Assembly (NCBI GenBank): GCA_026387405.1
Contig: JAPLLV010000056.1
Coordinates: 25,765-89,764 of the forward strand
DNA length: 64,000 nucleotides
Origin: Candidatus Omnitrophota bacterium
GTDB lineage: Bacteria > Omnitrophota > Gorgyraeia > Gygaellales > Profunditerraquicolaceae
Reading direction: 5' to 3'
Under the pieces are notes generated by a model that was given only the letters and a program-made list of their open reading frames with translations, had not been told where the DNA came from and did not search any database. Shown here piece by piece: positions 3,841 through 63,236 of this stretch. Position numbers and translations under genes: made by a program. Every line of letters begins with the position of its first letter. The stretch's first letter is position 1.

Positions 3841-5055
3841 ATGATCCGGGTCCTGGAAATCTCCAATCAAGCAGAATTAAGCGGGATTTTGCGGGAGATC
3901 GGGGTCGATCCTTATGGCATAGGTATCATGCGCCTGAAAGGAATGACGCGCCTTATCCATATCAAAGCCCTATCCAATATAACCGCAAATATCCTTAAGC
4001 AAGAAATGCTCGCCCTCGGCGCAGATGCCGCAATTGCCCGCGGCTCATTGACCGGTAAAACCAAAAGAACCGGCTGTTTGCTGATGGCCAATGATGCGCA
4101 GCTGAACCGGCTAAATGCCAAACTCAAAAATCAACCCTTTGGGCTTGGGGATATCGGGAACCGGATACGAAATGCGCTTCTGAACTACGAAAAAGATAAT
4201 TTTCTAATAGATATCGGAAGGTATAAACTGGACCTGAGCAAGTCTACCCGCGTCATGGGAGTGGTAAATCTTACGCCGGACTCTTTTAGCGGTGACGGCC
4301 TTTATACGCCATATGCCATACGCCATATGCCATACGCCGATAGAATTGTGGAATTTGCGCAAAAATTGGTAGAAGATGGGGCTGATATAATTGACGTGGG
4401 AGGTGAATCTTCCCGCCCCGGAGCCAAACCTATATCAATAAAAGAAGAGTGTTCTCGGGTTATGCCGGCGATCAAGGTTATAGCTAAAAAAATAAAGATC
4501 CCTATCTCCATAGACACCTACAAACCCGAAGTTGCCGGGCGCGCGCTTCTAAATGGCGCGGGTTTAGTAAATGATATCTCGGGTTTAAGAGATCCGGCTA
4601 TGGTTAAAGTGGTTGCCCGCTATAAAGCGGCGGTGGTGATCATGCATATGAAAGGCAAACCCTCTAATATGCAGAAAAAACCTGTTTATGAATCCCTGAT
4701 TTTTGAGATCATGGAATTCCTGGAAAATGCGATAGCCAATGCCGTATCGTGCGGCATAACCAGGGATAAGATCATTGTCGATCCGGGGATCGGCTTTGGG
4801 AAAACCCTAAGAGATAACCTGGAAATATTAAAGAACCTGCAAAGCCTTAAGACCCTGGGCAGGCCCATATTGGTCGGGCCGTCCAGAAAATCCTTTATCG
4901 GTAAAATATTGCGCAGCGGGCCTCAAGATAGGATGCCGGGCACGTTATCTGCCTGCGTATTGGCGGCTAAAAACGGTGCCAGGATCCTGCGGGCGCACGA
5001 TGTAAAAGAAGTAAAGCAGGCATTAAAGATCCTGGACGCGGTATCTGGAGCCTAA
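3841..5055 (+). CDS. folP: Dihydropteroate synthase with a roughly 120-aa N-terminal extension domain
   Basis: Pterin-binding motifs (VMGVVNLTPDSFSGDG, DIIDVGGESSRPGA, SIDTYKPEVA, VNDISG, IVDPGIGFGKT); the ftsH-folP synteny matches E. coli. Confidence 0.9.
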   Translation: MIRVLEISNQAELSGILREIGVDPYGIGIMRLKGMTRLIHIKALSNITANILKQEMLALGADAAIARGSLTGKTKRTGCLLMANDAQLNRLNAKLKNQPFGLGDIGNRIRNALLNYEKDNFLIDIGRYKLDLSKSTRVMGVVNLTPDSFSGDGLYTPYAIRHMPYADRIVEFAQKLVEDGADIIDVGGESSRPGAKPISIKEECSRVMPAIKVIAKKIKIPISIDTYKPEVAGRALLNGAGLVNDISGLRDPAMVKVVARYKAAVVIMHMKGKPSNMQKKPVYESLIFEIMEFLENAIANAVSCGITRDKIIVDPGIGFGKTLRDNLEILKNLQSLKTLGRPILVGPSRKSFIGKILRSGPQDRMPGTLSACVLAAKNGARILRAHDVKEVKQALKILDAVSGA

Positions 5056-5845: not shown

Positions 5846-5975
5846 GAAAAAGGTCAGCTTAGGATACCGGATCAACCACTGGTTCACTTATCACCCCTGG
5901 CTTAAGTTATTTGCTCTTATCCTGGCAATTTTAGTCTGGTTTTACGTCAGGGAAGAGATAAACAGGTTTAACTGA
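5838..5975 (+). CDS. 46-aa remnant resembling the N-terminus of a CdaR/YbbR-like regulator, truncated just before repeat copy B
   Basis: ATG overlaps the cdaA stop (ATGCTTAA). MLKKKVSLGYRINHWFTYHPWLKLFALILAILVWFYV resembles YbbR N-termini. The ORF stops after 46 codons, immediately before the repeat at 5991. Confidence 0.4.
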   Translation: MLKKKVSLGYRINHWFTYHPWLKLFALILAILVWFYVREEINRFN

Positions 5976-5990
5976 AAAGAAACTTAAATC

Positions 5991-6065
5991 TTATTCGAGC
6001 GAGGCAAAACTTTTATCTTCTCGACAAGCTCGAAGCATAAAAGTTTTGCCGAGTCGAGAATATTT
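5991..6065 (-). repeat. Family-1 structured intergenic repeat, copy B (reverse orientation)
   Basis: tattcgagcgag + gcaaaacttttat + core cttctcgacaagctcgaagc + ataaaagttttgcc + gagtcgagaatattt; the arms are perfectly complementary. Confidence 0.8.
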
Positions 6066-6069
6066 ACAC

Positions 6070-6865: not shown

Positions 6866-7225
6866 ATGGCTATTATTGGAACCGGAGTAGACATCACTGA
6901 AGTCAGGCGCCTGCGGCAGGCAATAGAAAAATGGGGAGACGAATTCCTGAATAAAGTATTTACTTCCGCGGAGATAAAAAACGCCAAAAACCGCAGCAGT
7001 TTTTACCAACACCTGGCCGGGAGATTCGCAGCAAAAGAAGCAATATTCAAGGCCCTGGGAGATAAATCCATTACCTGGAAGGATGTCGAGATATTAAACG
7101 ACAAGGAAGGCCGGCCTTACTGCAGGATATTAAACGGCAAATCAAACAAGGTAACGGTGTGCGTCTCTATATCCCACGTAAAAAGCTATGCGGTTGCCAA
7201 TGCGGTTATTACGGAGAAAGAATAA
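6866..7225 (+). CDS. acpS: Holo-[acyl-carrier-protein] synthase
   Basis: 119 aa, MAIIGTGVDITEVRR start, 4'-phosphopantetheinyl transferase motifs. Confidence 0.9.
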   Translation: MAIIGTGVDITEVRRLRQAIEKWGDEFLNKVFTSAEIKNAKNRSSFYQHLAGRFAAKEAIFKALGDKSITWKDVEILNDKEGRPYCRILNGKSNKVTVCVSISHVKSYAVANAVITEKE

Positions 7226-8051
7226 CTCCCACAAGGGAGATTTCGGCCATGTTTTTATAGTGGCGGGTTCGGCCCGTTACTCCGGTGCGGGGGCTCTATG
7301 CTCAGAAGCAGCCATTCGTTCGGGAGCAGGATTAGTAACCTTAGGCATTCCTAAAAGCCTGAATAACGCAATGATAAAGATCAAACCTAAGGAGGTAATG
7401 ACCTTACCGCTGCCGGAAACCAAGCAAGCAACCTTAAGCATAAGGGCGTTTAAAAAGATAAAGGATTTTAGTAACAATATAGATATTCTAGCTATCGGAC
7501 CTGGTCTTTCTCAAAATAACTCAACTCAATCTTTAGTGCGTAAAATTGTGGCGAAAATTGATAAACCGATGGTTATCGATGCCGACGGCCTAAATGCTTT
7601 AGCCGGCCATCTCGGTTTTCTACTAACGACTAACGACCAACGACCAGCGACTATATTAACCCCGCATCCTGGAGAAATGGCGCGGCTATTGGGAACAACT
7701 ATAAAAAAAGTACAGTCGTGTAGAAATGAGACTGCCGTCAGATTTGCCAGAGACTACGATTGCACAGTAGTCTTAAAAGGACACCATACTGTAGTAGCTG
7801 ATTACCGGGGAAATTCATATGTCAACAATACCGGCAACCCAGGGATGGCTACTGCCGGCAGCGGAGACGTATTAACAGGGATGATAGCGGCATTCTTGGC
7901 GCAAGGAATAGAAAGCTATAGCGCGGCAAAATATGCTGTATATCTGCACGGATTAGCTGGCGACTTAGCCGCGGAAGAAAAGACACAAATTTCCTTGATT
8001 GCTTCGGATATTATTGCTAAAATCCCTGAAGCGATAAAGAAAAGCAGTTAG
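7188..8051 (+). CDS. nnr: ADP-dependent NAD(P)H-hydrate dehydratase (YjeF C-terminal / Nnr family). The start is uncertain because it overlaps acpS. Contains an in-frame heptamer-repeat insertion at 7616-7652
   Basis: HKGDFGHVFIVAGSARYSGA, GAGLVT and GSGDVLTG motifs of the carbohydrate-kinase-like YjeF_C domain. Confidence 0.8.
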   Translation: MRLPMRLLRRKNNSHKGDFGHVFIVAGSARYSGAGALCSEAAIRSGAGLVTLGIPKSLNNAMIKIKPKEVMTLPLPETKQATLSIRAFKKIKDFSNNIDILAIGPGLSQNNSTQSLVRKIVAKIDKPMVIDADGLNALAGHLGFLLTTNDQRPATILTPHPGEMARLLGTTIKKVQSCRNETAVRFARDYDCTVVLKGHHTVVADYRGNSYVNNTGNPGMATAGSGDVLTGMIAAFLAQGIESYSAAKYAVYLHGLAGDLAAEEKTQISLIASDIIAKIPEAIKKSS

Positions 8052-8052
8052 C

Positions 8053-8128
8053 GCCGGCGTAGCTCAGTCGGTAGAGCGTCTGTTTTGTAAACAGATGGTC
8101 GGGGGTTCGATTCCTCTCGCCGGCTCCA
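8053..8128 (+). tRNA. tRNA-Thr (anticodon UGU)
   Basis: Hand-folded cloverleaf: acceptor gccggcg/cgccggc, D-arm gctc-agtcggta-gagc, anticodon stem tctgt/acaga with loop tttgtaa, T-loop ttcgatt, 3' CCA encoded. Confidence 0.85.
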
Positions 8129-8138
8129 CTAAAAAAGA

Positions 8139-8804
8139 ATGATTTCAGTAAATCAACAAACGATTAAAAATTTATATTGGGAAAAGGGCTATACTGTGCC
8201 GGATATCGCGAAACGGATTAATATTTCTTCATGGGCACTTTATAATTTTATGGATAGACATAAGATTGGACGGCGCGATCGTTCACAGACAAGCTTTCTT
8301 TTGAGCCGTAATAAACCCCGGTTTATAATAAACAACACTCTTACAGCTTCGCAGGAAAAGCTAAAGATTGCAGGAGTAATGTTATACTGGGCAGAGGGCA
8401 CTTTATTGCATAACACTGTGGATTTTACTAATTCCAATTCAAATATGGTTAGGTTGTTCTTGAAATTCTTAAGGGAAATTTGTGGAATAAGCGAAAAGAG
8501 ATTACGTGTTTATCTTTATTGTTATTCCTATCAGAAGGTAGAAGACCTATTGAACTACTGGCACAAAGTTACGGGAATTCCGTTATCTCAATTTACAAAA
8601 CCATACATAAGAGAAGGAAACATTAATTCTAGCTTAAGAAAATTACCATACGGATTAATTCATGTAAGGTATAATGATAAACAATTGCTTGAGATAATCA
8701 AACAATGGATTGATGAGTATATAGTTTGGACAGGTACCCAAGTGGCCAAAGGGGGCAGACTGTGTAAACGCAGCGTCTTGCCGAAAGGCAGGATGGAAAA
8801 GTAG
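8139..8804 (+). CDS. LAGLIDADG-like homing endonuclease candidate with an N-terminal HTH. It is free-standing and lies immediately upstream of the intron-containing tRNA-Tyr. The 3' end of the ORF reads through the tRNA-Tyr 5' exon
   Basis: IAGVMLYWAEGT resembles the LAGLIDADG/AEG dodecapeptide, followed by a block (NMVRLFLKFLREICGISEKRLRVYLY) typical of single-motif LAGLIDADG enzymes. Location between tRNA genes next to a group I intron. Confidence 0.45.
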   Translation: MISVNQQTIKNLYWEKGYTVPDIAKRINISSWALYNFMDRHKIGRRDRSQTSFLLSRNKPRFIINNTLTASQEKLKIAGVMLYWAEGTLLHNTVDFTNSNSNMVRLFLKFLREICGISEKRLRVYLYCYSYQKVEDLLNYWHKVTGIPLSQFTKPYIREGNINSSLRKLPYGLIHVRYNDKQLLEIIKQWIDEYIVWTGTQVAKGGRLCKRSVLPKGRMEK

Positions 8805-9014
8805 GTGAATTCAGGGGAGCCCCAAGAAACACTTGGGGGAATCCTGAGCCAAGCCCGCCAACTTTTTTCCGGCGGGAAGGTGCAGAGACTAAGCGCCTAC
8901 CACCTAAAACTTTAAAAAGTAACGGTGATGAGATAGTCCAAGCCTTGAGGTAACTCGAGGGCACTTGAAATCTGCTGCACTTGTGCTTCAGAGGTTCGAA
9001 TCCTCTCCTGTCCA
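8728..9014 (+). tRNA. tRNA-Tyr (anticodon GUA) interrupted in the anticodon loop by a 204-nt group I intron. Exon 1 is 8728-8763, exon 2 is 8968-9014
   Basis: Exon 1 ggacagg-ta-ccc-aagtggccaaa-ggg-g-gcaga-ctgt and exon 2 aaa-tctgc-tgcacttgtgcttc (long variable arm)-agagg-ttcgaat-cctct-cctgtcc-a. The spliced product is nearly colinear with E. coli tRNA-Tyr (CCCGAGCGGCCAAAGGGAGCAGACUGUAAAUCUGC). The spurious antisense ORF MDRRGFEPL is the classic tRNA reverse-complement signature. Confidence 0.8.
8764..8967 (+). ncRNA. Group I intron (204 nt) in tRNA-Tyr
   Basis: 5' exon ends with U (cugu|), paired to the internal guide gcag just inside the intron (P1 with a U.G wobble). The intron ends with G (cacttg|). 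The R-like element gtgcagagactaag (8881-8894) and S-like element gagatagtcc (8930-8939) form P7 (gacta/tagtc). Further hairpins at ccccaag-aaaca-cttgggg and cccgcc...ggcggg. Confidence 0.75.
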
Positions 9015-9984: not shown

Positions 9985-10058
9985 GCGAGCGTAGTTCAAT
10001 GGTAGAACAATAGCCTTCCAAGCTATATATGTCGGTTCGATTCCGATCGCTCGCTCCA
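9985..10058 (+). tRNA. tRNA-Gly (anticodon UCC)
   Basis: Acceptor gcgagcg/cgctcgc, anticodon stem atagc/gctat with loop cttccaa, T-arm gtcgg-ttcgatt-ccgat, CCA encoded. Confidence 0.85.
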
Positions 10059-12421: not shown

Positions 12422-12496
12422 CGGGGGATGGCGCAGTTTGGCTAGCGCGCTTGAATGGGGTTCAAGAGGCCGAGAGTTCAAGTCTCTCTCCCCCGA
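12422..12496 (+). tRNA. tRNA-Pro (anticodon GGG)
   Basis: Acceptor cggggga/tcccccg, anticodon stem cttga/tcaag with loop atggggt (G37), T-arm gagag-ttcaagt-ctctc. Confidence 0.75.
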
Positions 12497-13413: not shown

Positions 13414-14709
13414 ATGGAAAAAATAAATATTGGCATTATCGGCTTTGGAAATGTTGGGGCGGGAGTGGTCAAGATCATACGCGAACGCGGCGCTAACTTG
13501 TCTTCAAAGATCGGCCTGCATCTTGAGATTAAGAAGATCTGCGATAAGGATACCGTGTCCAAAAGGAATGTCTCGGTAGATAAAAGCTTGATTACCAAGG
13601 ACGCGCACGAGATCATTGACGACCCGAAAATCGACATCGTGGTAGAACTCATCGGAGGCATCCACCCGGCGAGAGAGTTCATCACCCAGGCGCTTAATAA
13701 AGGCAAGAATATCGTCACTGCCAATAAGGCGCTTCTGGCCGTCTATGGCAGAGAACTCTTTGCCTTGGCAAGCGACCGCGGCAAAAATATTTATTTTGAA
13801 GCCTCGGTGGGCGCAGGGATACCCATAATCAAATCCCTGCGGGAAGGGCTAGTGGCGAACAAATTCAATAGTATCTATGGGATCGTGAACGGCACCTCGA
13901 ATTTCGTATTATCCCAGATGTCACAGCAAAACTACAGTTTTGACGAGGCATTGAGGGAGGCCAAAGAAAAGGGGTTCGCCGAAAAAGACCCGTCGCTCGA
14001 TATAGAAGGCATGGATTCCGCGCATAAATTATCCATCCTAAGCTATCTGGCCTTTGGCAGGCTTGTGGACCTCAGCGATATTTTTGTAGAGGGCATCTCC
14101 TGCGTAACCAACGCCGATATTAATTATGCCAGGGAACTCGGGTTCGCCATAAAACTATTGGCCATTGCCAAGAAAGAAAAAGATGAACTGGAACTAAGGG
14201 TGCATCCCACCCTTATACCCGAAGACCATCTTCTTTCCTCGGTGGGAGGGGTCTTCAACGCCATCTATGTTTCCAGCGACCTGGCGGGAAACCTCCTCTT
14301 CTACGGGCCCGGGGCCGGACAACTCTCTGCCGCCTCGGCTGTGGTGTCTGACCTGGTGGACTTAAGCCATGATATCAAGGCAGGGCTTTTCCGTCCCACA
14401 TTAAAGATCTCTCCGGATACCTCGATCAAGAAACTGCGTAAGATAGACGACATTGAAAGCCGCTATTATCTCCGCACCATGACCTTAGATAAACCCGGCG
14501 TCTTGGCAAAGATCGCCGGCATCCTGGCTAAATCCGGAATAAGTATCGCCTCGGTATCCCAGAAAGAGAAAGGGAGGCAGGAGGCCGTGCCTATAGTAAT
14601 GATAATCCACAGCGCAAAAGAAAAAGACATGCGCACTGCTTTAGGGACAATTAATAAATTGGATATAATCAAACAGAAGGCTGTGGCAATCAGGATCGAG
14701 GAGTTATGA
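13414..14709 (+). CDS. hom: Homoserine dehydrogenase
   Basis: GFGNVGAGV NAD-binding motif, homoserine dehydrogenase catalytic domain, C-terminal ACT domain. Internal Met at MEKINIGIIG preferred as the start. Confidence 0.9.
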   Translation: MEKINIGIIGFGNVGAGVVKIIRERGANLSSKIGLHLEIKKICDKDTVSKRNVSVDKSLITKDAHEIIDDPKIDIVVELIGGIHPAREFITQALNKGKNIVTANKALLAVYGRELFALASDRGKNIYFEASVGAGIPIIKSLREGLVANKFNSIYGIVNGTSNFVLSQMSQQNYSFDEALREAKEKGFAEKDPSLDIEGMDSAHKLSILSYLAFGRLVDLSDIFVEGISCVTNADINYARELGFAIKLLAIAKKEKDELELRVHPTLIPEDHLLSSVGGVFNAIYVSSDLAGNLLFYGPGAGQLSAASAVVSDLVDLSHDIKAGLFRPTLKISPDTSIKKLRKIDDIESRYYLRTMTLDKPGVLAKIAGILAKSGISIASVSQKEKGRQEAVPIVMIIHSAKEKDMRTALGTINKLDIIKQKAVAIRIEEL

Positions 14710-15884
14710 AAAATCACAAGTATAACGGGATTATAGAAAAATACCGCGGGTATCTTCCTGTTTCCGGTAAGACGCCGGTAATCACTCTGCAAGAAGGAAA
14801 TACTCCTCTAATATACGCCCCTTTCCTGAGTAGATTAGTCAGTGAAAGTTGCGGGGTTTACCCCCACACCAATTGGAAAAAAAAGGATATCTTTCAACCA
14901 ATTGGTGTGGGGGTATATCTAAAATATGAAGGTCTTAATCCTACCGGTTCTTTCAAAGACAGGGGCATGACTATGGCTGTTTCCAAGGCCTGCGAGCAAG
15001 GCTCAAGGGCAGTGATCTGCGCCTCAACCGGAAATACATCGGCCTCGGCTGCCGCTTATTCTGCCCGCGCCGGAATTAGATGCATTGTGCTCATTCCTAA
15101 GGGAGCGATCGCCCTGGGAAAGTTGAGCCAGGCAATAATCCACGGAGCAACGGTCCTGGCTGTTAAAGGAAATTTTGATGAAGCACTGGAACTGGTAAAA
15201 GAGGTCGCGGCAAAATATCCCATAACCCTGGTCAACTCGCTTAACCCTTTCCGCATTGAAGGACAGAAAACCGCTAGTTTCGAGATCTGCGATTATTTGG
15301 GCAGGGCTCCGGATTTCCAGGTCATGCCTGTGGGCAATGCCGGAAATATCACCGCTTATTGGAAAGGATATAAAGAATACAAAGTTCATAAGAAAATAAG
15401 GCATTTGCCTGTGATGCTCGGTTTTCAGGCCGAAGGCGCAGCGCCTATAGTGAAGGGACATCCCATAAAAAATCCGCAAACTTTAGCCACGGCCATACGT
15501 ATCGGCAATCCGGCAAGCTGGACTCAGGCAGAAGCAGCTCGAGACGAATCCAGCGGGCTTATCGATGCGGTCTCGGATAAAGAAATAATCGCTGCCTACA
15601 AACTATTAGCCCAAAAGGAAGGCGTCTTTGTGGAACCTGCTTCCGCGGCTTCTATCGCCGGCCTCTTAAAATTAGCCAGAAATAAATATTTTAAACCAAG
15701 TACCAACGACCAACCCCGCCTGCCACTTGGTACGCGGGGCGGGCAGGGACCAACGACCAAAATCGTCTGCATCCTGACCGGACATGGCTTGAAAGACCCG
15801 GACAGGGCCATAAAATCAGTTAAAGAACCAAAGATAGTAAAGCCGGAATTGAGAGCTATATTAAGGGGAATAGGCTATTTTTAG
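14706..15884 (+). CDS. thrC: Threonine synthase, with a roughly 22-aa repeat-derived insertion near the C-terminus
   Basis: PLP-lysine motif FKDRGMT and GNTSASAAAY. The insertion KPSTNDQPRLPLGTRGGQGPTTK is encoded by caacgac-type repeats at 15696-15762. Confidence 0.9.
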   Translation: MKNHKYNGIIEKYRGYLPVSGKTPVITLQEGNTPLIYAPFLSRLVSESCGVYPHTNWKKKDIFQPIGVGVYLKYEGLNPTGSFKDRGMTMAVSKACEQGSRAVICASTGNTSASAAAYSARAGIRCIVLIPKGAIALGKLSQAIIHGATVLAVKGNFDEALELVKEVAAKYPITLVNSLNPFRIEGQKTASFEICDYLGRAPDFQVMPVGNAGNITAYWKGYKEYKVHKKIRHLPVMLGFQAEGAAPIVKGHPIKNPQTLATAIRIGNPASWTQAEAARDESSGLIDAVSDKEIIAAYKLLAQKEGVFVEPASAASIAGLLKLARNKYFKPSTNDQPRLPLGTRGGQGPTTKIVCILTGHGLKDPDRAIKSVKEPKIVKPELRAILRGIGYF

Positions 15885-15954
15885 CGTATAGCGGATAGCG
15901 TTTAGTGAGCAGAAAAATTCTCGCTCTACGCTCTACGCTCTACGCTCTACGCTA
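15885..15954. repeat. Family-2 simple repeat: agcgtatagcggatagcg followed by four tandem copies of the heptamer GCTCTAC (15923-15950)
   Basis: Direct reading. Shares agcgtatagcggatag with the repeat at 60286-60360. Confidence 0.8.
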
Positions 15955-17315: not shown

Positions 17316-18065
17316 ATGCGCAAAAGATGGTTGATCGCCGCTTTAATCATATTAACCGCTTGGCGTTGGGGCTTTGCCGGGGAAAAAGTTCCTGCCCCTT
17401 CGGGATGGGTAAATGATTTTGCCGGAGTAATCAATCCGGCGTATAAAGAAAAAATCAGCTCTTTAATTGAAGAGCTGGAGCAAAAGACAAGCTCAGAGAT
17501 AGCGGTAGTTACCATAAGCTCCATCTCGCCATATGATGAAAATTCATACGCGAGGATGCTCTTTGACAGCTGGAAACCGGGGAAAAAGGGTAAGGATAAC
17601 GGCGTCTTGATCCTTGTGGCGGTCAAAGAAAGACGCTGGAGGATCGAGACCGGATATGGAGTAGAAGGCATATTGCCCGACGGGCTCTGCGGAGAGATCG
17701 GCCGTAACCAGATGGTCCCCTATTTTAAACAAGGTGATTACGGAACAGGCCTTTACTATGGGGCCGCGGCAATAGCGCAAATTATTGCTAAAGATGCACA
17801 CGTTGTCTTAGACGTAGAAGGAAACCTCCCCGGTACACCTATAACCCAGACTCCAGGGTCGTCTATGGAAGGCATAATATTCTTTATAGTAATAATAGTG
17901 ATAATTGTTCTTACGTTGATTTCCAACCTCTTTCACGGTTACGGTCTTTTTGGCGGTGGATATTACGGCGGTGGATATGACGGAGGCGGTGGTTTTGGCG
18001 GAGGTGGATTCGGAGGATTCGGAGGAGGCGGAGGAGGCGGTGGCGGAGGTGGAGGAGGATTTTAA
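17316..18065 (+). CDS. TPM domain (YgcG/TLP18.3-like) protein with a glycine-rich C-terminal tail
   Basis: Signal/TM, TPM motifs (AVVTISS...ILVAVKERRWRIETGYG), C-terminal GGGYYGGGYDGGGGFGGGG low-complexity tail; paired with LemA. Confidence 0.75.
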   Translation: MRKRWLIAALIILTAWRWGFAGEKVPAPSGWVNDFAGVINPAYKEKISSLIEELEQKTSSEIAVVTISSISPYDENSYARMLFDSWKPGKKGKDNGVLILVAVKERRWRIETGYGVEGILPDGLCGEIGRNQMVPYFKQGDYGTGLYYGAAAIAQIIAKDAHVVLDVEGNLPGTPITQTPGSSMEGIIFFIVIIVIIVLTLISNLFHGYGLFGGGYYGGGYDGGGGFGGGGFGGFGGGGGGGGGGGGGF

Positions 18066-21283: not shown

Positions 21284-21360
21284 TGTCATTGCGAGGAGCG
21301 AAAGCGACGAAGCAATCTAAAGGCATGATTGCTTCGCCCCTTCGGGGCTCGCAATGACAG
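21284..21360 (+). repeat. Family-4 structured repeat with GAAA and UUCG tetraloop hairpins, copy 1
   Basis: Outer stem tgtcattgcgag/ctcgcaatgaca; inner hairpins gaagcaatc...gattgcttc and gcccc-ttcg-gggc; gc-gaaa-gc. Confidence 0.75.
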
Positions 21361-23006: not shown

Positions 23007-23119
23007 TATCCCGCCGACAGGAATAATTTGTTAATTTAGCGACATCTCGCCGAGCGGGTATTTCTTCTTATTCATGCACGGCTATGGCCGTGGTATTCTG
23101 CGAAGGCGGGATAAATCTA

Positions 23120-25933
23120 ATGAGCAATGAAATCCCCAAACAATATAACCCGCGAGAATGTGAAGATAAGTGGTATAAGTTCTGGGAAGAGAATAATTAT
23201 TTCTCCGCCAGGGCCAATCCCGCAAAGAAACCTTTCTCTATAGTCATTCCGCCGCCTAATGTGACAGGGATCCTGCACATGGGCCATGCCTTAAATAACA
23301 CTATCCAAGACATCCTCATCCGCTACCATCGCATGCAAGGTGAAGAGTCTCTCTGGATGCCGGGGACTGACCATGCCGGGATCGCCACCCAAAACGTGGT
23401 AGAAAAAGCCCTTGCCAAGGAAAACATCAAGCGCCAGGATTTAGGGAGGGAAAAATTCATCGAGAAAGTCTGGCTATGGAAGGAACAATACGGCTCCGCC
23501 ATCATCAGGCAGCTAAAGAAATTAGGCGCATCCTGCGATTGGTCAAGGATACGCTTTACCATGGATGAGGAATATTCCAAGGCGATAGTTGAAGTCTTTG
23601 TGCGCCTATATGAGAAGGGCCTGATCTATCAGGGAAACTACATTATCAACTGGTGCCCGCGCTGCCAGACCGCGCTTTCCGATGAAGAAGCGCCGCATAA
23701 AGAGCTGCAGGGAAATTTATACTATTTAAGATATCCTATTGTCGTTAGTCGTAAGTCGTTAGTCGTTAGTAAGGCTGGAGCAAAAGGAAGCGGAAAAAAG
23801 ACGGATGACGAATACATTGTTGTCGCAACTACCCGGCCGGAGACGATGCTCGGCGACACGGCGGTGGCGGTTAACCCCAAAGATAAACGCTATAAGCATC
23901 TTATCGGTGAGAGCATCATCCTGCCTTTAGTCAATCGCGAAATAAAAATTATCTCTGACAACAGCGTGGATGTGAAATTCGGCACAGGCGCGGTCAAAGT
24001 CACGCCCGCGCATGACCCTAACGATTATGCCTTAGGCAAAAAGCACAAGCTGGAATTTATAAACGTGATGCGTGCCGACGGACGCATGAATGAAAATTCG
24101 GGCGATTACAAAGATATGGATCGTTTCGAGGCCAGGGAGGTCATCCTGGAAGACTTGAAGGAAAAGGGATTCCTGGAGAAGGTCGAACCTCACCAGTTGT
24201 CCGCTGGACACTGCTACCGTTGCCACACCATCATCGAACCCTACCTATCCAAACAGTGGTTTGTAAAAATGAAGCCGCTGGCAAAAGAAGCGATACGGGT
24301 AGTCAAAAAGGGTAAGATCAAATTTCATCCGGAGCGCTGGACCAAGGTATACCTTAACTGGATGGAGAATATCCAGGATTGGTGCATCTCCAGACAGATC
24401 TGGTGGGGACATCGCTTGCCTGTTTACTACTGTAAAAATTGCCTGACTAACGACCAACGACTAACGACTAACGACAAGGGAGGCGTTATTGTCTCTCGCA
24501 CTAAGCCGGAAAAATGCCCGGAATGCGGTTCAACCGATATCTATCAAGACGACGATGTGCTGGACACCTGGTTTTCCAGCTGGCTCTGGCCCTTTGCTAC
24601 CTTTGGCTGGCCATTTGGCTTATCGCATATGGCAAATGGCATATCGCAAGAAAGCCATAAGCGATTAGCGATAAGCGATAAGCAAAAGGATTTAGATTAT
24701 TTCTACCCCACCTCTGTCCTCGTTACTGCCCCGGAAATCATCTTTTTCTGGGTAGCGCGCATGATCATGGCCGGCCTGGAGTTCATGCAAGACATTCCTT
24801 TTAGAGATGTTTATATCCACGGGACAGTGCGCGACACCGAAGGCAAAAAGATGTCTAAATCCCTGGGTAATATTATAGACCCGCTGGATATCATAAAAGA
24901 GTTCGGAACCGATGCCTTACGCTTCAGCCTGATATCCATTACCGCCCAGGGCCAAGACGTATTCTTGTCCAAAGAAAGATTTGAACAGGGAAGGAATTTC
25001 GCCAACAAGATCTGGAACGCCTCAAGGTTCATCCTGATGAACCTCCAACCGGAGCAAACCAAAGCCGATCTCTGTGTATTCTTCAAAAAAGAAAATTTAA
25101 GCCTGGAAAACCGTTGGATCTTAAGCCGGTTCTATTCGGTATTAAAAGAGTTAAACTCTCACCTTGACTCCTTAAAATTCAATGAAGCCGCGAATCTTTT
25201 GTATGGCTTCTTCTGGCACGAGTTCTGCGATTGGTATCTGGAAATAATCAAGGCTGATATAAAGAACCCGCAGAACCAGATAGTCATGTATAAGGTGTTA
25301 GAAAAATTTTTAAGGATACTGCACCCGTTAATGCCTTTTTTGACCGAGGAGATCTGGCAGAAATTTAACAACCAACCAACGACCAAGGACCAACGACTAA
25401 CGACCAGTATTATGATCCAGCCCTGGCCGCATGTGCAAGAGCAGATGATCGACAAGAAATATGAAGAATTGATGCAGTCGGTCTTTGATGTCATTGTAAC
25501 CATCCGGAATATGCGCTCGGAATTGGAAATACCCCTCCAGGACACCATATCCTCGACGATTTGTTCTCCCCAGAAGAAGGAACGAGAACTTTTAGCATCC
25601 TGCGCTCCGATCATAAAGAACCTGACCAAAACAGGAGAAGTGGATATCAAAGAGACATGCACGCGCGGCCCGGGACAATTCGTAATGGTCTTAAAAGACA
25701 TGCATATCGTCATCCCGCTCTCAGGGCTAATAGACATTGCTGCCCACCGCAAAAAGACCGAAGAGAAGATAGCCAAAGCTGAGGCAGAGATCAAGCGCAA
25801 AAAGGAACTGTTGGAGAATGCGAATTTCAGCAAAAATGCACCGGAAGAAATAGTAGAGAAGGAAAAGGCGAGGTTAAGCGAATTAAACGAGCTGGTAAAA
25901 AAACTAAAGGCGGTGAAAGATGCACTCCAATAA
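23120..25933 (+). CDS. valS: Valine--tRNA ligase, with four in-frame repeat-derived insertions
   Basis: HMGHAL (HIGH) and KMSKS motifs, C-terminal coiled coil. Insertions at 23741-23774, 24444-24474, 24611-24682 and 25371-25408 fall in loops that are variable in E. coli ValRS. Confidence 0.95.
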   Translation: MSNEIPKQYNPRECEDKWYKFWEENNYFSARANPAKKPFSIVIPPPNVTGILHMGHALNNTIQDILIRYHRMQGEESLWMPGTDHAGIATQNVVEKALAKENIKRQDLGREKFIEKVWLWKEQYGSAIIRQLKKLGASCDWSRIRFTMDEEYSKAIVEVFVRLYEKGLIYQGNYIINWCPRCQTALSDEEAPHKELQGNLYYLRYPIVVSRKSLVVSKAGAKGSGKKTDDEYIVVATTRPETMLGDTAVAVNPKDKRYKHLIGESIILPLVNREIKIISDNSVDVKFGTGAVKVTPAHDPNDYALGKKHKLEFINVMRADGRMNENSGDYKDMDRFEAREVILEDLKEKGFLEKVEPHQLSAGHCYRCHTIIEPYLSKQWFVKMKPLAKEAIRVVKKGKIKFHPERWTKVYLNWMENIQDWCISRQIWWGHRLPVYYCKNCLTNDQRLTTNDKGGVIVSRTKPEKCPECGSTDIYQDDDVLDTWFSSWLWPFATFGWPFGLSHMANGISQESHKRLAISDKQKDLDYFYPTSVLVTAPEIIFFWVARMIMAGLEFMQDIPFRDVYIHGTVRDTEGKKMSKSLGNIIDPLDIIKEFGTDALRFSLISITAQGQDVFLSKERFEQGRNFANKIWNASRFILMNLQPEQTKADLCVFFKKENLSLENRWILSRFYSVLKELNSHLDSLKFNEAANLLYGFFWHEFCDWYLEIIKADIKNPQNQIVMYKVLEKFLRILHPLMPFLTEEIWQKFNNQPTTKDQRLTTSIMIQPWPHVQEQMIDKKYEELMQSVFDVIVTIRNMRSELEIPLQDTISSTICSPQKKERELLASCAPIIKNLTKTGEVDIKETCTRGPGQFVMVLKDMHIVIPLSGLIDIAAHRKKTEEKIAKAEAEIKRKKELLENANFSKNAPEEIVEKEKARLSELNELVKKLKAVKDALQ

Positions 25934-30252: not shown

Positions 30253-30340
30253 CACCCCGCGCTAAGAAGTCATCTGGCCCTAGGCACCCGGCGCTTATTT
30301 GAATTGCGCCGGTGTTCCCTCGTGGGGAATTTGCGCGGGT
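30253..30340 (+). promoter_or_regulatory. groES leader hairpin module: outer stem caccccgcgc/gcgcgggtg enclosing inner hairpin cacccggcgc-ttatttgaatt-gcgccggtg. Same motif family as 34243-34274 and 42153-42183
   Basis: Direct reading. 32 nt (gcacccggcgcttatttgaattgcgccggtgt) are identical to the guaB-like leader. Confidence 0.6.
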
Positions 30341-30371
30341 GTTGTCCTGGTGGACAAGGAGGTGTAAAAAA

Positions 30372-30662
30372 ATGGACATCAAACCATTAGGAGACAGGGT
30401 GGTCATTCAGCCCTTAGAGGCAGAGAATAAGACCAAGGGAGGCATTGTCTTACCTGATACGGCTAAGGAAAAACCTCAAGAGGGAAAGGTCGTGGCAATA
30501 GGCAAAGGCAAGATACTGGACAGCGGAGCCGTTCAGGCATTGGAAGTCAAGGTAGGAGACAAGGTGCTTTACGGAAAGTATTCCGGAAACGAGATTACCA
30601 CCAAAGAAGGCCAGGAACTTTTGATCATGCGCGAAGAAGACATCTTGGCAATCATTAAGTAG
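30372..30662 (+). CDS. groES: Co-chaperonin GroES
   Basis: [13 protein letters not shown]... 96 aa. The internal ATG at 30372 is preferred over the upstream ORF start. Confidence 0.95.
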
Positions 30663-30668
30663 CAACCA

Positions 30669-30742
30669 GTTCTCGACTCGCAGCAAATTTATTCTTCGAG
30701 CTTGTCGAGAAGATAAATTTGCTGGCTCGCTCGAACAATATT
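30669..30742 (+). repeat. Family-1 structured intergenic repeat, copy C (inside the groES-groEL spacer)
   Basis: gttctcgactcg + cagcaaatttat + tcttcgagcttgtcgagaag + ataaatttgctg + gctcgctcgaacaatatt. Confidence 0.8.
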
Positions 30743-34080: not shown

Positions 34081-34242
34081 TCAAACCTTCCTATTTTTAA
34101 GCCTTCCCGCTCTAAAATAAGCATTGACAAAAAAGCATTATTAGTGTAAAATTCAATATCTATTTTGTCGATATCAGACCTACCGGAAAATTCTGTATTT
34201 ATTTGATAAATAAGAGGTTGCGGACACTTGGGCCAGATAGGG

Positions 34243-34274
34243 CACCCGGCGCTTATTTGAATTGCGCCGGTGTC
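34243..34274 (+). promoter_or_regulatory. guaB-like leader hairpin cacccggcgc-ttatttgaatt-gcgccggtg (shared leader motif)
   Basis: Identical to the inner hairpin of the groES leader. Lies downstream of a TTGACA promoter at 34125 and is followed by a hairpin partly covering the SD. Confidence 0.6.
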
Positions 34275-34326
34275 CCCCCCGTGGGGAATTGAGCCAGTGT
34301 TAACTTACTGTTAAGGAGTAGATCAC

Positions 34327-43790: not shown

Positions 43791-43877
43791 CGAAAAATGG
43801 GATTCCTCGCTGCGCTCGGAACAGGCTGCGCAATCTAAAATTAAGATTGCTTCGCCCCTTCGGAGCTCGCAATGACG
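43733..43877 (+). repeat. Family-4 structured repeat, copy 2, carrying a roughly 75-nt internal insertion. It spans the hisS 3' end and the hisS-aspS spacer
   Basis: gtcattgcgaggagc ... gcgcaatctaaaattaagattgcttcgccccttcggagctcgcaatgac. Shares the outer stem, inner stem and UUCG hairpin with copy 1 at 21284. Confidence 0.75.
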
Positions 43878-48269: not shown

Positions 48270-48773
48270 ATGGAAATAGCCATAAAAAACCTGCAGTCCA
48301 AAATTCCTATCAATCCGAAGAGGATAAAAAGAATAATCCTTGATACGCTTTCATCCGAAGGCGTCAAAAAACCAGCGAGCATCAGTGTCTGTTTTGTAAA
48401 CGACAAGAAAATAAAGGAATTGAATCTGCGTTTCCTTAAAAGATCGGGACCAACCGACGTAATATCCTTCGACCTATCCGCCGGTACAAAAGAGATTGTC
48501 GCGGAGATCGCCGTCTCTACGGACACGGCTATACGCCAGTCAAAGATCTATCACACCACTTATACCTATGAAACTCTCCTTTACGTAATACACGGGTTGC
48601 TGCATATACTTGGCTATGACGACAGAAGCGCCCGTCAAAGAAAACTCATGCAGGAAAAAACAGAATCTATACTTGATAGTTCCCGACTCGGAAAAACTTT
48701 TATTCTTCGAGCAAGGTCCCTGCCTGCCGGCAGGCAGGGAGAAGATAAAAGTTTTGCCTCGCTCGAACAATAA
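48270..48773 (+). CDS. ybeY: Endoribonuclease YbeY, C-terminally extended by read-through into repeat copy D
   Basis: HGLLHILGYDD zinc-binding motif. The last roughly 20 codons lie inside the family-1 repeat. Confidence 0.85.
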   Translation: MEIAIKNLQSKIPINPKRIKRIILDTLSSEGVKKPASISVCFVNDKKIKELNLRFLKRSGPTDVISFDLSAGTKEIVAEIAVSTDTAIRQSKIYHTTYTYETLLYVIHGLLHILGYDDRSARQRKLMQEKTESILDSSRLGKTFILRARSLPAGRQGEDKSFASLEQ

Positions 48774-58920: not shown

Positions 58921-60285
58921 ATGGCTGAAAATTTGATGGATAAGATAGTTTCACTTTCTAAGCGCCGGGGCTTTATCTTCCAGTCTTCGGAGGTATACGG
59001 AGGCCTTAGCAATACCTGGGACTACGGCCCTTTTGGCGTGGAGCTCAAGAACAACCTAAAAACAGCCTGGTGGAAGGCCAATGTCTACCAGCGCGACGAT
59101 ATCCTGGGCATGGACGCGGCCATACTCATGCACCCTGATGTCTGGCGGGCATCCGGTCACGTGGATAACTTTTTTGATCTAAAAAGCGACTGCAAAACCT
59201 GCAAAAAACGCTTTAAGACCGCGGACTTAAAAAACGCCGATAAATGTCCCGAATGCGGCGGAGAACTCACTGAAAGCCGCCCTTTTAACCTGATGTTCAA
59301 AACCTACCAGGGGCCGGTGGAAGACGCAGGGAATATCGTTTATTTAAGGCCGGAGACTGCCCAGGGGATGTTCGTGAACTTCATCAATATCCTGGACGCG
59401 CGCCACCCCAAACTTCCCTTTGGCCTGGCGCAGATCGGCAAGGCCTTCAGGAACGAGATCACACCGGGTAATTTCACCTTCCGCACCCGTGAGTTCGAGC
59501 AGATGGAGATCGAATATTTTGTCCGGCCGCAAGAGGGCGACAAAAAATTAGAGGAGTGGATAGAAACCCACTTTAATTGGTATGTCAATTTGGGTATAAA
59601 GAAGGAGAACTTAAGGAAACGCCCGCACGGGAAAGAGGAACTGGCGCATTACGCCAAGGCCTGCACGGATATCGAATACAACTTTCCCTTCGGGTGGAGC
59701 GAATTAGAAGGTATTGCCAACCGGACTGATTTTGATCTAAAGCAGCACGCCAGGCAAAGCGGCAAGGACTTTCAGTATTTCGACGACGCGGCAAAACAAA
59801 GGTTTTATCCGTACATTATTGAACCATCAGGGGGGGTAGACAGGAGCGTTCTGGCATTTCTGGTAGATGCCTACCACGAGGAAAAAGTTCCCCCCCGCAC
59901 CAATTTTGAAAAAAACGAAGCTATTCTACCAATTGGTGCGGGGGTAAAGAATGACACGCGCGTGGTCTTAAAGCTGCACAGGGACCTGGCGCCTACAAAA
60001 GTGGCGGTGCTGCCGCTTTTAAGGAACCGGCCGGAGATCGTGGAGCTGGCGCAAAAAATAGCCCGGGAGCTTAAGAAAAATATGGTGGCCGTTTATGACG
60101 ACACCGGCTCAATAGGAAAACTCTACCGCAGACAGGATGAGGTAGGCACGCTCTACTGCGTCACGGTAGATGTACAGTCAATGGAGGACAAGCAGGTCAC
60201 GGTGCGCGAGCGTGACAGCATGCAACAAGAACGCATCAGCGTCGATAAACTAAAAGAATATCTTTTGCAAAAATTAAACAACTAG
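58921..60285 (+). CDS. glyQS: Glycine--tRNA ligase, alpha2 (archaeal/eukaryotic-like) type
   Basis: Class II motifs, zinc-ribbon-like CxxC...CPEC insertion, C-terminal anticodon-binding domain; 454 aa. Confidence 0.9.
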   Translation: MAENLMDKIVSLSKRRGFIFQSSEVYGGLSNTWDYGPFGVELKNNLKTAWWKANVYQRDDILGMDAAILMHPDVWRASGHVDNFFDLKSDCKTCKKRFKTADLKNADKCPECGGELTESRPFNLMFKTYQGPVEDAGNIVYLRPETAQGMFVNFINILDARHPKLPFGLAQIGKAFRNEITPGNFTFRTREFEQMEIEYFVRPQEGDKKLEEWIETHFNWYVNLGIKKENLRKRPHGKEELAHYAKACTDIEYNFPFGWSELEGIANRTDFDLKQHARQSGKDFQYFDDAAKQRFYPYIIEPSGGVDRSVLAFLVDAYHEEKVPPRTNFEKNEAILPIGAGVKNDTRVVLKLHRDLAPTKVAVLPLLRNRPEIVELAQKIARELKKNMVAVYDDTGSIGKLYRRQDEVGTLYCVTVDVQSMEDKQVTVRERDSMQQERISVDKLKEYLLQKLNN

Positions 60286-60360
60286 TCTTAGCGTATAGCG
60301 TAGAGCGTATAGCGGATAGACCTATACGCTAAACGCTATCCGCTAAACGCTAAAAGAAAG
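60286..60360. repeat. Family-2 simple repeat / imperfect palindrome built from TAGCGTATAGCG and CGCTAAACGCTA units
   Basis: ttagcgtatagcgtagagcgtatagcggatag-acc-tatacgctaaacgctatccgctaaacgctaa. Shares agcgtatagcggatag with 15885. Confidence 0.75.
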
Positions 60361-63125: not shown

Positions 63126-63130
63126 ACTTA

Positions 63131-63224
63131 TATTGTGCGAGCGAGGCGGCAATTTTATCTTCTCCCTGCCTGCCGGCAGGCAGGGACGCTGCTCGAAGAG
63201 TAAATTTGCCGCCGAGTCGAGAAC
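63131..63224 (-). repeat. Family-1 structured intergenic repeat, copy E (reverse orientation, with the central palindrome ccctgcctgccggcaggcaggg)
   Basis: tattgtgcgagcgag + gcggcaattttat + cttctccctgcctgccggcaggcagggacgctgctcgaaga + gtaaatttgccgcc + gagtcgagaac. Confidence 0.8.
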
Positions 63225-63236
63225 ATTAACTCCAAT

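Follow-up and report, generated by a model that had tools for sequence, protein, structure and literature searches.

The intact thrC gene in a 64,000-nucleotide stretch of Candidatus Omnitrophota DNA (contig JAPLLV010000056.1; the whole stretch is called the window, and positions refer to it) carries an in-frame, non-conserved segment at 15696–15759, directly before the part encoding the conserved IVCILTGHGLKDP strand of threonine synthase (ThrC). This segment is probably an insertion in layers, selfish or neutral in nature, whose translation adds surface loop to a threonine synthase that is otherwise normal. The first layer is a tandem array of ~30 nt, about four 7-nt units (CCAACGA), in a loop of ThrC, and the second a 33-nt element put precisely into one CCAACGA unit without target-site duplication. 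The element is assigned to a family of small GC-rich sequences, here named P, that recur in other bacteria and in phages. The features discussed are collected in Table 1.

The product of thrC is, by its sequence, a threonine synthase of pyridoxal phosphate (PLP) fold type II. Its PALP domain (PF00291) scored 231.8 bits against a cut-off of 35 (E = 1.5e-68), and it matched the solved ThrC structures 2zsj, 6cgq, 1uim and 2d1f with E values from 1e-117 to 7e-138, the last being that of the Aquifex enzyme (2zsj). The protein is 100% identical to P0001, 'threonine synthase [Candidatus Omnitrophica bacterium]', whose cluster contains a single member. The PLP-lysine motif SFKDRG (in GSFKDRGMT) and the phosphate loop GNAGN (in PVGNAGNITA) are intact, and both are invariant in the orthologue alignment (A2). 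The gene is preceded by that for homoserine dehydrogenase and followed by a DFP (CoaB-type) gene, an arrangement also found in related contigs.

The segment is translated as YFKPSTNDQPRLPLGTRGGQGPTTK followed by IVCILTGHGLKDPD, and the inserted peptide, PSTNDQPRLPLGTRGGQGPTTK, lies directly before IVCILTGHGLKDPD; it is located, in frame in thrC, where the original prediction had put it. The loop sits between the last long helix and the conserved strand. All three printed alignments to solved ThrCs have a gap of ~18 residues at this position, and they have a second gap at residues 47–69 of the thrC product. Across the 120 closest ThrCs (70–78% identity; the named ones are mostly from Omnitrophota/Omnitrophica), the loop varies from 11 to 39 residues with a mode of 18–19, and eight of them have the 11-residue baseline. 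The gap in the solved enzymes and this spread of lengths mark the segment as an insertion and not a conserved part of the protein, as had been predicted from the window; conservation at the protein level among the homologues compared was not seen.

A periodicity of 7 or 8 residues is present in 46 of the 120 loops, compared with 5.6% of shuffled loops; a 7-nt unit is translated in all three frames, so that the peptide repeats every 7 residues. An alternative is that the 22 additional residues (331–352) arose by selection for a role specific to ThrC, such as regulation, interaction or solubility. The frame is kept, the inserted peptide is hydrophilic with a high content of Gly, Pro and Arg, and most Omnitrophota ThrCs have some insertion at this loop. 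However, the loop sequence is not conserved and differs even between close relatives, the DNA elements found here recur between genes and in the genes of other enzymes, of phage structural proteins and of tRNAs, and the periodicity of the peptide tracks the DNA period of 7 in three frames. We consider an adaptive role very unlikely. The insert is most likely a tolerated, neutral passenger of a surface loop that was already permissive for an array, as judged from these comparisons.

The layering is seen in the DNA of the loop, which was obtained for orthologues via the exact ThrC proteins; the two nearest sampled are L001 (GCA_028710715.1) and L002. The array of L001 is uninterrupted and reads TTT AAA (CCAACGA)x4 CAAAAATA; L002 and L003 have the same array except that two units are CCAAAGA. 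In the window the corresponding DNA reads TTT AAA CCAAGTA CCAACGA CCAAC, then 33 nt, then GA CCAACGA CCAAAATC. A MAFFT alignment (A1) of the three genes produced one clean 33-nt gap in L001 and L002, with zero target bases duplicated, and the insertion point falls between CCAAC and GA of one CCAACGA unit. On this alignment the 33 nt are an extra lineage-specific insertion into a heptamer array common to three species. The element is composed of the end CCCGCCTGCC (15715–15724), a 13-nt centre ACTTGGTACGCGG (15725–15737) and the end GGCGGGCAGG (15738–15747), and its exactly 11 codons encode PRLPLGTRGGQ. The original prediction had described a single heptamer-repeat insertion; the heptamer array is indeed there, but it is interrupted by a separate element. 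Since the array is shared with two species that have no such element, the array and the palindromic element arrived at different times, and the suggestion that the two repeat classes were co-mobilised is not supported.

When the whole 35-nt core was searched for in the window, zero further copies were found at up to 3 mismatches; the P family is therefore visible only after the core is split into its ends and centre. P elements have conserved ends of 8–10 nt, CC(Y)GCC(Y)GCC ... GGC(R)GGC(R)GG. P1 is the perfect 20-nt palindrome CCTGCCTGCCGGCAGGCAGG; P1 and a second subfamily, P2, occur also in 21-nt forms, and larger forms of P contain 7–19 additional central bases. The minimal P1 and P2 forms (20–21 nt) have fold energies of −6.7 to −8.8 kcal/mol (z of −2.1 to −4.0). 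P2 has the ends CCCGCCTG...CGGGCAGG with the block order A B ... A' B', and its arms are not fully complementary. This arrangement is the same in every P2 copy found, including that in thrC, which is by its ends a P2 member with an enlarged centre.

The 21-nt form of P2, CCCGCCTGCCGGACGGGCAGG, was found twice in a Bacteroidetes metagenome-assembled genome (MAG; L107) and in 19 IMG/VR stretches. A search with the two 10-nt ends of the thrC element fixed and 6–20 nt allowed between them gave 41 copies including that of the window, with lengths of 27 nt (13 copies), 30 nt (7), 33 nt (11), 36 nt (7), 37 nt (2) and 39 nt (1); the length is a multiple of 3 in nearly all (38/41). The centres, whose lengths include 7, 10, 13 and 16 nt, contain the recurrent sequences AAGCCTT, ATCGCCTGGCACT and CCTCACTACTGAGTGG. 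Some other P2 copies, like that of thrC, lie within heptamer or octamer arrays (L307, L321 and L295/297/316). P elements also enter one another: a 27-nt P2 copy occupies the centre of a 33-nt copy in L298 and L319, the undisturbed 33-nt form being present in L323, and P copies in L112, L138 and L115 are interrupted, one base away from their centre, by a further copy.

The window itself contains a second setting of P. The 11-nt arms of the thrC element (CCCCGCCTGCC / GGCGGGCAGGG) match the halves of a 22-nt palindrome, CCCTGCCTGCC/GGCAGGCAGGG, at 10 of 11 positions each. This palindrome is found at 48718–48739 and 63164–63185, in both cases at the centre of a hairpin repeat of a class termed family 1. 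The original prediction had noticed only a cctgcc/ggcagg motif in common, so the likeness is stronger than noted. P1 is present in two of the four family-1 copies, at the same internal position, and absent from those at 5975–6067 (TTCTC/GAC) and about 30660–30740 (GTC/GAGAAG). Filled and unfilled copies differ by exactly the 20 nt of P1, between TTCTC and GAC. The proposed link between the repeat classes is thus upheld as the nesting of an independent P unit in an array and in hairpin tips, and not as relatedness of sequence. The family-1 repeats are ~90–115 nt long (TTATTCGAGCGAGGCAAAACTTTTATCTTCTC ... GCTCGAAG...GTTTTGCCGAGTCGAGAA), and an extra fragment of the family lies at 403–426.

P elements are also found in the ThrC loops of other Omnitrophota. 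In L088 a 21-nt element lies within a different array (AGCG-CCTGCCTGTCCGGCAGGCAGG-CAC), and the identical 21 nt are present within an ACGCANN array in the loop of L086; the element is the same at 21/21 positions in proteins that are 79% identical and within array flanks that differ at about one third of positions (by eye). A third array, in L087, contains a 25-nt variant, CCTGCCTGGCCGGCAGGCAGGCAGG. The ThrC loop has also received sequences of other kinds: a different small hairpin (TCCCGCCAAAGGCGGGA, peptide SGIPPKAGK) is present in seven further orthologues, and an unrelated 41-nt insert interrupts an octamer array when L004 is compared with L005.

The heptamer array belongs to a class that is abundant in the window and the clade, and the caacgac family of the original prediction proved real. 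At up to 2 mismatches ACCAACGACCAA has 22 matches in the window against 4.1 expected, a number reached by 0/100 shuffles, and there are 8–9 period-7 runs against none of period 5, 6 or 8 (Tandem Repeats Finder also detects period-7 arrays). In 792 kb of related loci, 60 arrays have period 7, compared with 3–11 for each other period from 4 to 12; their median length is 27 nt (interquartile range 24–31), and the window arrays are 24–35 nt long. Heptameric repeats are described as in excess in bacteria in the passages concerned (PMC4692102). In addition to those in Table 1, a heptamer array is present in a pterin-binding enzyme gene (3841–5055). Such arrays can be inherited, since the dehydratase gene of L001 also contains one.

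Many Omnitrophota ThrCs have arrays in this loop, with differing units. Elsewhere these are AGCGCAC, ACGCANN, CCAAAAC, AACGGGC, GGGGCAA and CGAAAAC, and in some species 8-nt units, CCGGCAAA and CAGGCAAA. In the orthologue DNA the units are nearly free of T on the coding strand, by which stop codons are avoided in all frames. The valS gene has four separate in-frame heptamer arrays in one essential gene; in the first (23741) one variant unit, GTCGTAA for GTCGTTA, avoids an in-frame TAG. The valS genes of L002, L004 and L089 have arrays with other units near residue 200 (unaligned).

A period of 7 is not a multiple of three, and slippage by one unit would shift the frame; the array could in that case be a contingency (phase-variation) locus, in which gain or loss of a unit switches thrC. 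This is extremely unlikely. The array is short, imperfect and interrupted, so that slippage is suppressed, and arrays of the same type are found in essential genes such as valS. The thrC frame is intact in all array-bearing orthologues whose DNA was read, and there are no length variants of the thrC product on record, its cluster having a single member.

P is widely distributed. An exact search for CCTGCCTG(N)CCGGCAGGCAGG in 596 Gb of DNA, with one genome per species, found it in at least 120 species-representative contig stretches, against ~2 expected by chance on our own estimate. Among the matches listed, P occurs in about ten phyla, the labels of MAGs being those of the submitters. In Patescibacteria, or the candidate phyla radiation (CPR), the carriers are Parcu-, Wolfe-, Saccharibacteria, WWE3, Uhr-, Doudna-, Davies-, Yanofsky-, Giovannoni- and Peregrinibacteria. 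By record title, P is present also in Bacteroidota, Omnitrophota, Planctomycetota, Nitrospira, Thermodesulfovibrionales, Chloroflexi, Elusimicrobia and Ignavibacteria, and in MAGs labelled Gamma- or Deltaproteobacteria or Bdellovibrionales. The matches listed include seven cultured Bacteroidota, among them Winogradskyella echinorum, Flagellimonas yonaguniensis, Longitalea luteola, Aquiflexum lacus and Agriterribacter humi. In 792 kb that had not been selected for P, 15 family members were found at up to 3 edits, and 11 of these have no more than one edit. Full-text literature searches for the P sequence returned no paper on it.

P occurs in viral sequence as well. P1 is present in 65 IMG/VR stretches. 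The contigs L276–L291 (IMGVR_UViG_2820306284_000001 to _000010), which are prophage contigs of one IMG genome with a GC content of 0.40–0.43, together hold the 21-nt P2 form in 25 or more exact copies, 13 of them in one 18.9-kb contig and many within phage structural open reading frames (ORFs).

A further location is the tRNA gene. In L193, L108, L133, L208, L124 and L135, P or a related palindrome lies between the D-loop and the 3' D-stem of tRNA genes or tRNA-like fragments. The locus L193 (Agriterribacter humi YJ03, NZ_VOHQ01000008.1, 52–130) has a probable tRNA-Arg(TCT), the anticodon being assigned by eye, with a 20-nt insert; the Rfam tRNA model spans the gene with its insert at 31.2 bits, and ARAGORN made no call. 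Only this locus is offered as a probable full interrupted tRNA gene, because some of the others (L108, L133 and L208) look like tRNA fragments.

Evidence that P is gained or lost precisely came from a search in which the 80-nt flanks of each P copy were joined and compared with all retrieved DNA. In about 20 related GC-rich viral contigs, which encode a tailed-phage portal protein, a protease–major head fusion and tail proteins, four sites were found at which a 21-nt P is precisely present or absent between flanks that are 85–96% identical, without duplication (sites A–D in Table 1). These pairs of filled and empty sites imply recent gain or precise loss of P. Site A has two forms: L225 and L271 have CCTGCCTG-A-CCGGCAGGCAGG and L227 has CCTGCCTGCCGG-A-CAGGCAGG, so that the unpaired base is on the opposite side of the central CCGG, as would follow if P had inserted independently or if its hairpin tip had flipped.

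The surroundings of P were compared at 174 unique P sites and 3348 random control positions drawn from the same loci. The junction is crossed by a tandem run of at least 6 at 18.4% of P sites and 3.4% of controls, and by one of at least 8 at 9.2% and 0.7%; a perfect flanking stem of at least 8 bp is present at 5.2% and 1.0%. The 20-nt P1 copies lie in long ORFs in 20% of cases, compared with 74% of control positions. Both this depletion and the multiple-of-3 lengths of P2 fit with selection acting on the site and form of the copies that survive.

From these data we tentatively propose that P is an undescribed class of mobile DNA, possibly the smallest, of 20–39 nt with two GC-rich ends of 8–10 nt and moved by an enzyme encoded elsewhere. 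With the same reserve, such a class would have the same sequence in about ten phyla and in phages, and would insert precisely into arrays, hairpin tips, tRNA D-loops, its own centres and, in frame, essential genes. Its movement in trans would be the work of an enzyme of host or phage origin with specificity for the ends or the hairpin of P. The enzyme would act on structure-prone single-stranded DNA such as slipped arrays, hairpin loops and the centre of P itself, or P would be tolerated there. Within genes the survivors are probably frame-keeping copies in permissive loops, and the insert in ThrC is most likely functionless. Movement in trans by an end- or hairpin-recognising enzyme on single-stranded, structure-prone DNA is a doubtful part of this proposal.

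Several observations weigh against the layered, mobile interpretation of the segment. Two concern the thrC copy itself. Its centre is unique among the 41 copies, and nine of the centre bases (ACTTGGTAC) are the reverse complement, in tandem, of the unit CCAAGTA that starts the array at 15696–15702, which hints at a contribution from a local template switch. The whole element might then have arisen locally, by slippage or template switching in the heptamer array, in which case it would resemble other palindromes by convergence; the arms consist of short CCNG units that slippage could expand, and L087 has an extra CAGG. Such an origin is improbable, given that both 10-nt ends are identical in 40 other copies from unrelated phage and bacterial contigs and in the same non-complementary arrangement, that the difference from two orthologues is one clean 33-nt gap, and that, by our own estimate, fewer than 1e-3 chance matches of at least 16 specified bases are expected in 64 kb.

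Structure and provenance provide further points of the same kind. The folds of the 81-nt segment (z = −0.23) and of the 33-mer (z = −0.27) are no better than those of shuffles, which gives no support to a strong hairpin in the thrC copy; when its arms are paired by eye, there is a single C·A mismatch and a single G·T pair. The AlphaFold model of ThrC is poor (predicted local distance difference test score, pLDDT, of 57) and was used only for the order of secondary structure; alignment gaps are thus the basis for placing the loop at the surface. An artefact of assembly or sequencing is conceivable, since one MAG assembly supplied the window and the protein cluster has a single member. The chance of an artefact is close to negligible: the insert is exactly 11 codons long and keeps a full-length ORF, and equivalent elements are found in independent assemblies (NCBI, JGI, ENA and Logan), including those of isolates and long-read chromosomes.

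The remaining points concern the movement of P. More than 70% of P copies lie in neither an array nor a hairpin, so that the structural preference is only partial, and the enrichment in arrays could reflect an insertion preference or mere tolerance. Flank logos searched for a target motif gave weak biases only: T is rare at −1 and A at +1, and oriented P2 copies have a purine at −1 and T at +1. The neighbours of the 120 genomic P copies are unrelated housekeeping genes, and no gene family recurs beside P in these loci (up to 8 kb; all-against-all BLAST of 5310 ORFs around P copies). The P2-rich prophages had only structural genes among those scanned. The only large clusters of ORFs around P are phage genes common to one related group of viruses, and Pfam and PHROG scans of the P-carrying phage contigs gave structural, packaging and methylase genes only. 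A ParB gene beside P in L090 did not recur, and no RAYT (Y1 HUH transposase) or TnpA gene was seen beside P within loci of up to 8 kb, whole genomes not being searched.

With no transposase found near P, spread might be achieved without one, by ectopic gene conversion between dispersed repeats (arrays, family-1 hairpins and P copies) that provide homologous flanks. P is enriched within multicopy sequences and occupies the exact same internal position in two family-1 copies, and six window arrays have a common ACYAACG unit. However, most copies, all four polymorphic phage sites included, are in unique coding sequence with repeats on neither side, and neither the first arrival of P in a genome nor the identical elements in about ten phyla are explained by conversion. 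Because it leaves the insertions into unique phage sequence unexplained, gene conversion can be a partial alternative only, and we judge it unlikely. Insertion of a mobile P into a pre-existing array is still the preferred account of the thrC segment.

The closest precedent for such insertion may be the small dispersed repeats (SDRs) nested in heptamer arrays of cyanobacteria, which Elhai and colleagues reportedly described in 2008 (Genome Res 18:1484) from Nostoc and other cyanobacteria, within heptameric short tandemly repeated repetitive (STRR) sequences. SDRs are said to be hairpin-forming, dispersed sequences of ~20–27 nt in eight families, which lie within heptamer arrays and within one another and interrupt continuous sequence without target duplication; to our knowledge, no transposase is known for them. 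The thrC array resembles an STRR in having at least three head-to-tail 7-nt units and in being one of many such arrays. P is SDR-like in that it has hundreds of dispersed, hairpin-forming 20–21-nt copies, although the thrC copy is itself 33 nt and folds like shuffles. It is likewise nested in heptamer arrays and in itself, and is present or absent in continuous orthologous sequence (thrC against L001 and L002, the four phage sites, and the family-1 paralogues). P differs in occurring in other phyla (Omnitrophota here, and about ten phyla and phages for the family), and its sequence may differ from those of the SDRs. We know of no SDR counterpart to the conserved ends with a 0–19-nt centre, the in-frame copies in housekeeping and phage genes, or the copies in tRNA D-loops.

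Other short repeats resemble P in part. The Rickettsia palindromic elements (RPEs) are inserted in frame in conserved genes and translated as an extra surface peptide; they are 100–150 nt long and confined to Rickettsia, whereas P is 20–39 nt and crosses phyla. The thrC gene contains a second, unrelated in-frame palindromic insertion at 14859–14915 that is nearer to the RPE style: a perfect 18-nt inverted repeat, TACCCCCACACCAATTGG / CCAATTGGTGTGGGGGTA, with a 21-nt loop, encoding VYPHTNWKKKDIFQPIGVG. A related copy lies in frame at 59890–59946 in an essential gene, the class-II aminoacyl-tRNA synthetase ORF at 58921–60285, and among ThrC orthologues the insertion is common to few (P0056 and P0042, and partly P0002 and P0012). 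On the 3' side of the stop codons of both thrC and the synthetase gene (15882–15953 and 60289–60354), a TAGCGNA array of three to four units is followed by a near reverse-complement array (CGCTCTA x4; CTAAACG/CTATACG); together they are hairpin-like, possibly terminator-like, and built of heptamers.

Mitochondrial GC clusters invade AT-rich genomes, genes included, and those of yeast have a short target duplication; we know of no established mechanism for their mobilisation. They are organellar and about 30–60 nt, whereas P is bacterial and 20–39 nt. Small GC-rich palindromic clusters or hairpin elements are described for the mitochondria of yeasts, other fungi and sponges in parts of two reports (PMC4478555, PMC2800124). 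Repetitive extragenic palindromic sequences (REPs) and REPINs are presented, in the relevant passages, as multicopy GC-rich imperfect palindromes of 20–40 nt, which the single-strand-specific HUH enzyme RAYT is presumed to mobilise in trans; they have a GTAG or CGTC end tag and are extragenic, species-specific and near a RAYT gene (PMC3116915, PMC3733652). P, unlike REPs, lacks a tag, is also genic and has the same sequence across phyla. An assignment to REP/REPIN was ruled out by the flanks of 176 unique copies, which have no conserved tetranucleotide, and by the genic location. Miniature inverted-repeat transposable elements (MITEs) were ruled out as well: P has inverted ends, but zero duplication at filled and empty pairs, and its 20–39 nt are far below MITE size. 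Single-strand transposition of the IS200/IS605 type (PATE-like) proceeds next to a fixed 4–5-nt target and without target duplication; the sites of P have zero duplication and weak flank biases only. As to the arrays, 49 elements of four tandem heptanucleotides are reported within and between genes of the Geobacter metallireducens genome (PMC2700814). They too are ~4 x 7 nt and genic, sometimes several per gene, as in the four arrays of the window valS, as well as intergenic; they differ in their unit (GGACCGG) and in being read as regulatory, and nested palindromes are not reported in that paper's passages on them (PMC2700814).

Table 1. Features of the window and of the related phage contigs discussed in the text.
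Feature	Position	Strand	Basis or remarks
thrC (threonine synthase) ORF, 392 aa, intact	14706..15884	+	ORF list, Pfam, similarity to solved structures, identical named protein
Left heptamer-array part, CCAAGTA CCAACGA CCAAC	15696..15714	+	Read directly; aligned to L001 and L002 at the same codon positions
33-nt P2-type element	15715..15747	+	33-nt gap in L001/L002 (A1); ends recur in 40 further copies
Right heptamer-array part, GA CCAACGA CCA..., into AAA ATC GTC (K I V)	15748..15759	+	Read and aligned
P1 palindrome, centre of family-1 hairpin repeat (about 48680–48772)	48719..48738	.	
P1 palindrome, centre of family-1 hairpin repeat (63117–63230)	63165..63184	.	
ACYAACG array in NAD(P)H-hydrate dehydratase ORF (7188–8051)	7622..7653	+	Counterpart in same gene of L001, 4330–4359
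ACYAACG array in valS (23084–25933)	24445..24475	+	
valS array, reverse-complement unit	23741..23770		
valS array, AAGCGAT	24652..24683		
valS array	25375..25406		
ACYAACG-family array (TTAGTCG on +), starting at a gene's stop codon	32426..32459	-	
Phage site A, GCCGA/P/CGGCGTGG			Filled in 3/8 aligned contigs
Phage site B			Filled in 3/9 aligned
Phage site C			Filled in 2/5 aligned
Phage site D, within head gene			Filled in 1/4 aligned

Rfam gave no family over the segment or the P loci, and in the window only tRNAs and one group I intron. The intron (82 bits, E = 2.5e-19) is at 8694–8960 on the + strand in a tRNA-rich stretch, with tRNAs at 8053–8125, 9985–10055 and 12422–12496. Two other dispersed repeat pairs are present: one of 47 nt (21312–21358 / 43830–43876), which contains GCCCCTTCGGGGC, and one of 61 nt (30283–30343 / 34241–34301) with GGCACCCGGCGC...GCGCCGGTG hairpins. 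The ORF at 17316–18065, whose syntenic counterpart in L004 is a TPM-domain protein, has a glycine-rich tail (GGYYGGGYDGGGGFGGGGFGG...) at 17944–18059 made from overlapping 9-, 15- and 18-nt tandem repeats.

How very short repeats such as REPs, SDRs and organellar GC clusters spread has been a puzzle for a long time: they code for nothing and, in many cases, fall below the size that known transposases can handle. P appears to be among the smallest mobile DNA known, and it is helpful for this puzzle in having a sharp sequence of 20–21 nt, clean filled and empty sites in phages, cultured carriers and in-frame survival in essential enzymes. These properties open the question to comparative genomics, as a search for a gene that co-occurs with P, and to experiment; the P-rich prophages L276–L291 would be a good system in which to find the mobiliser. 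The copies in tRNA genes matter for annotation, as ARAGORN misses interrupted genes. P insertions make conserved proteins longer and more varied in Omnitrophota, CPR bacteria and phages, and alignments, annotations and phylogenies can be misled by them.

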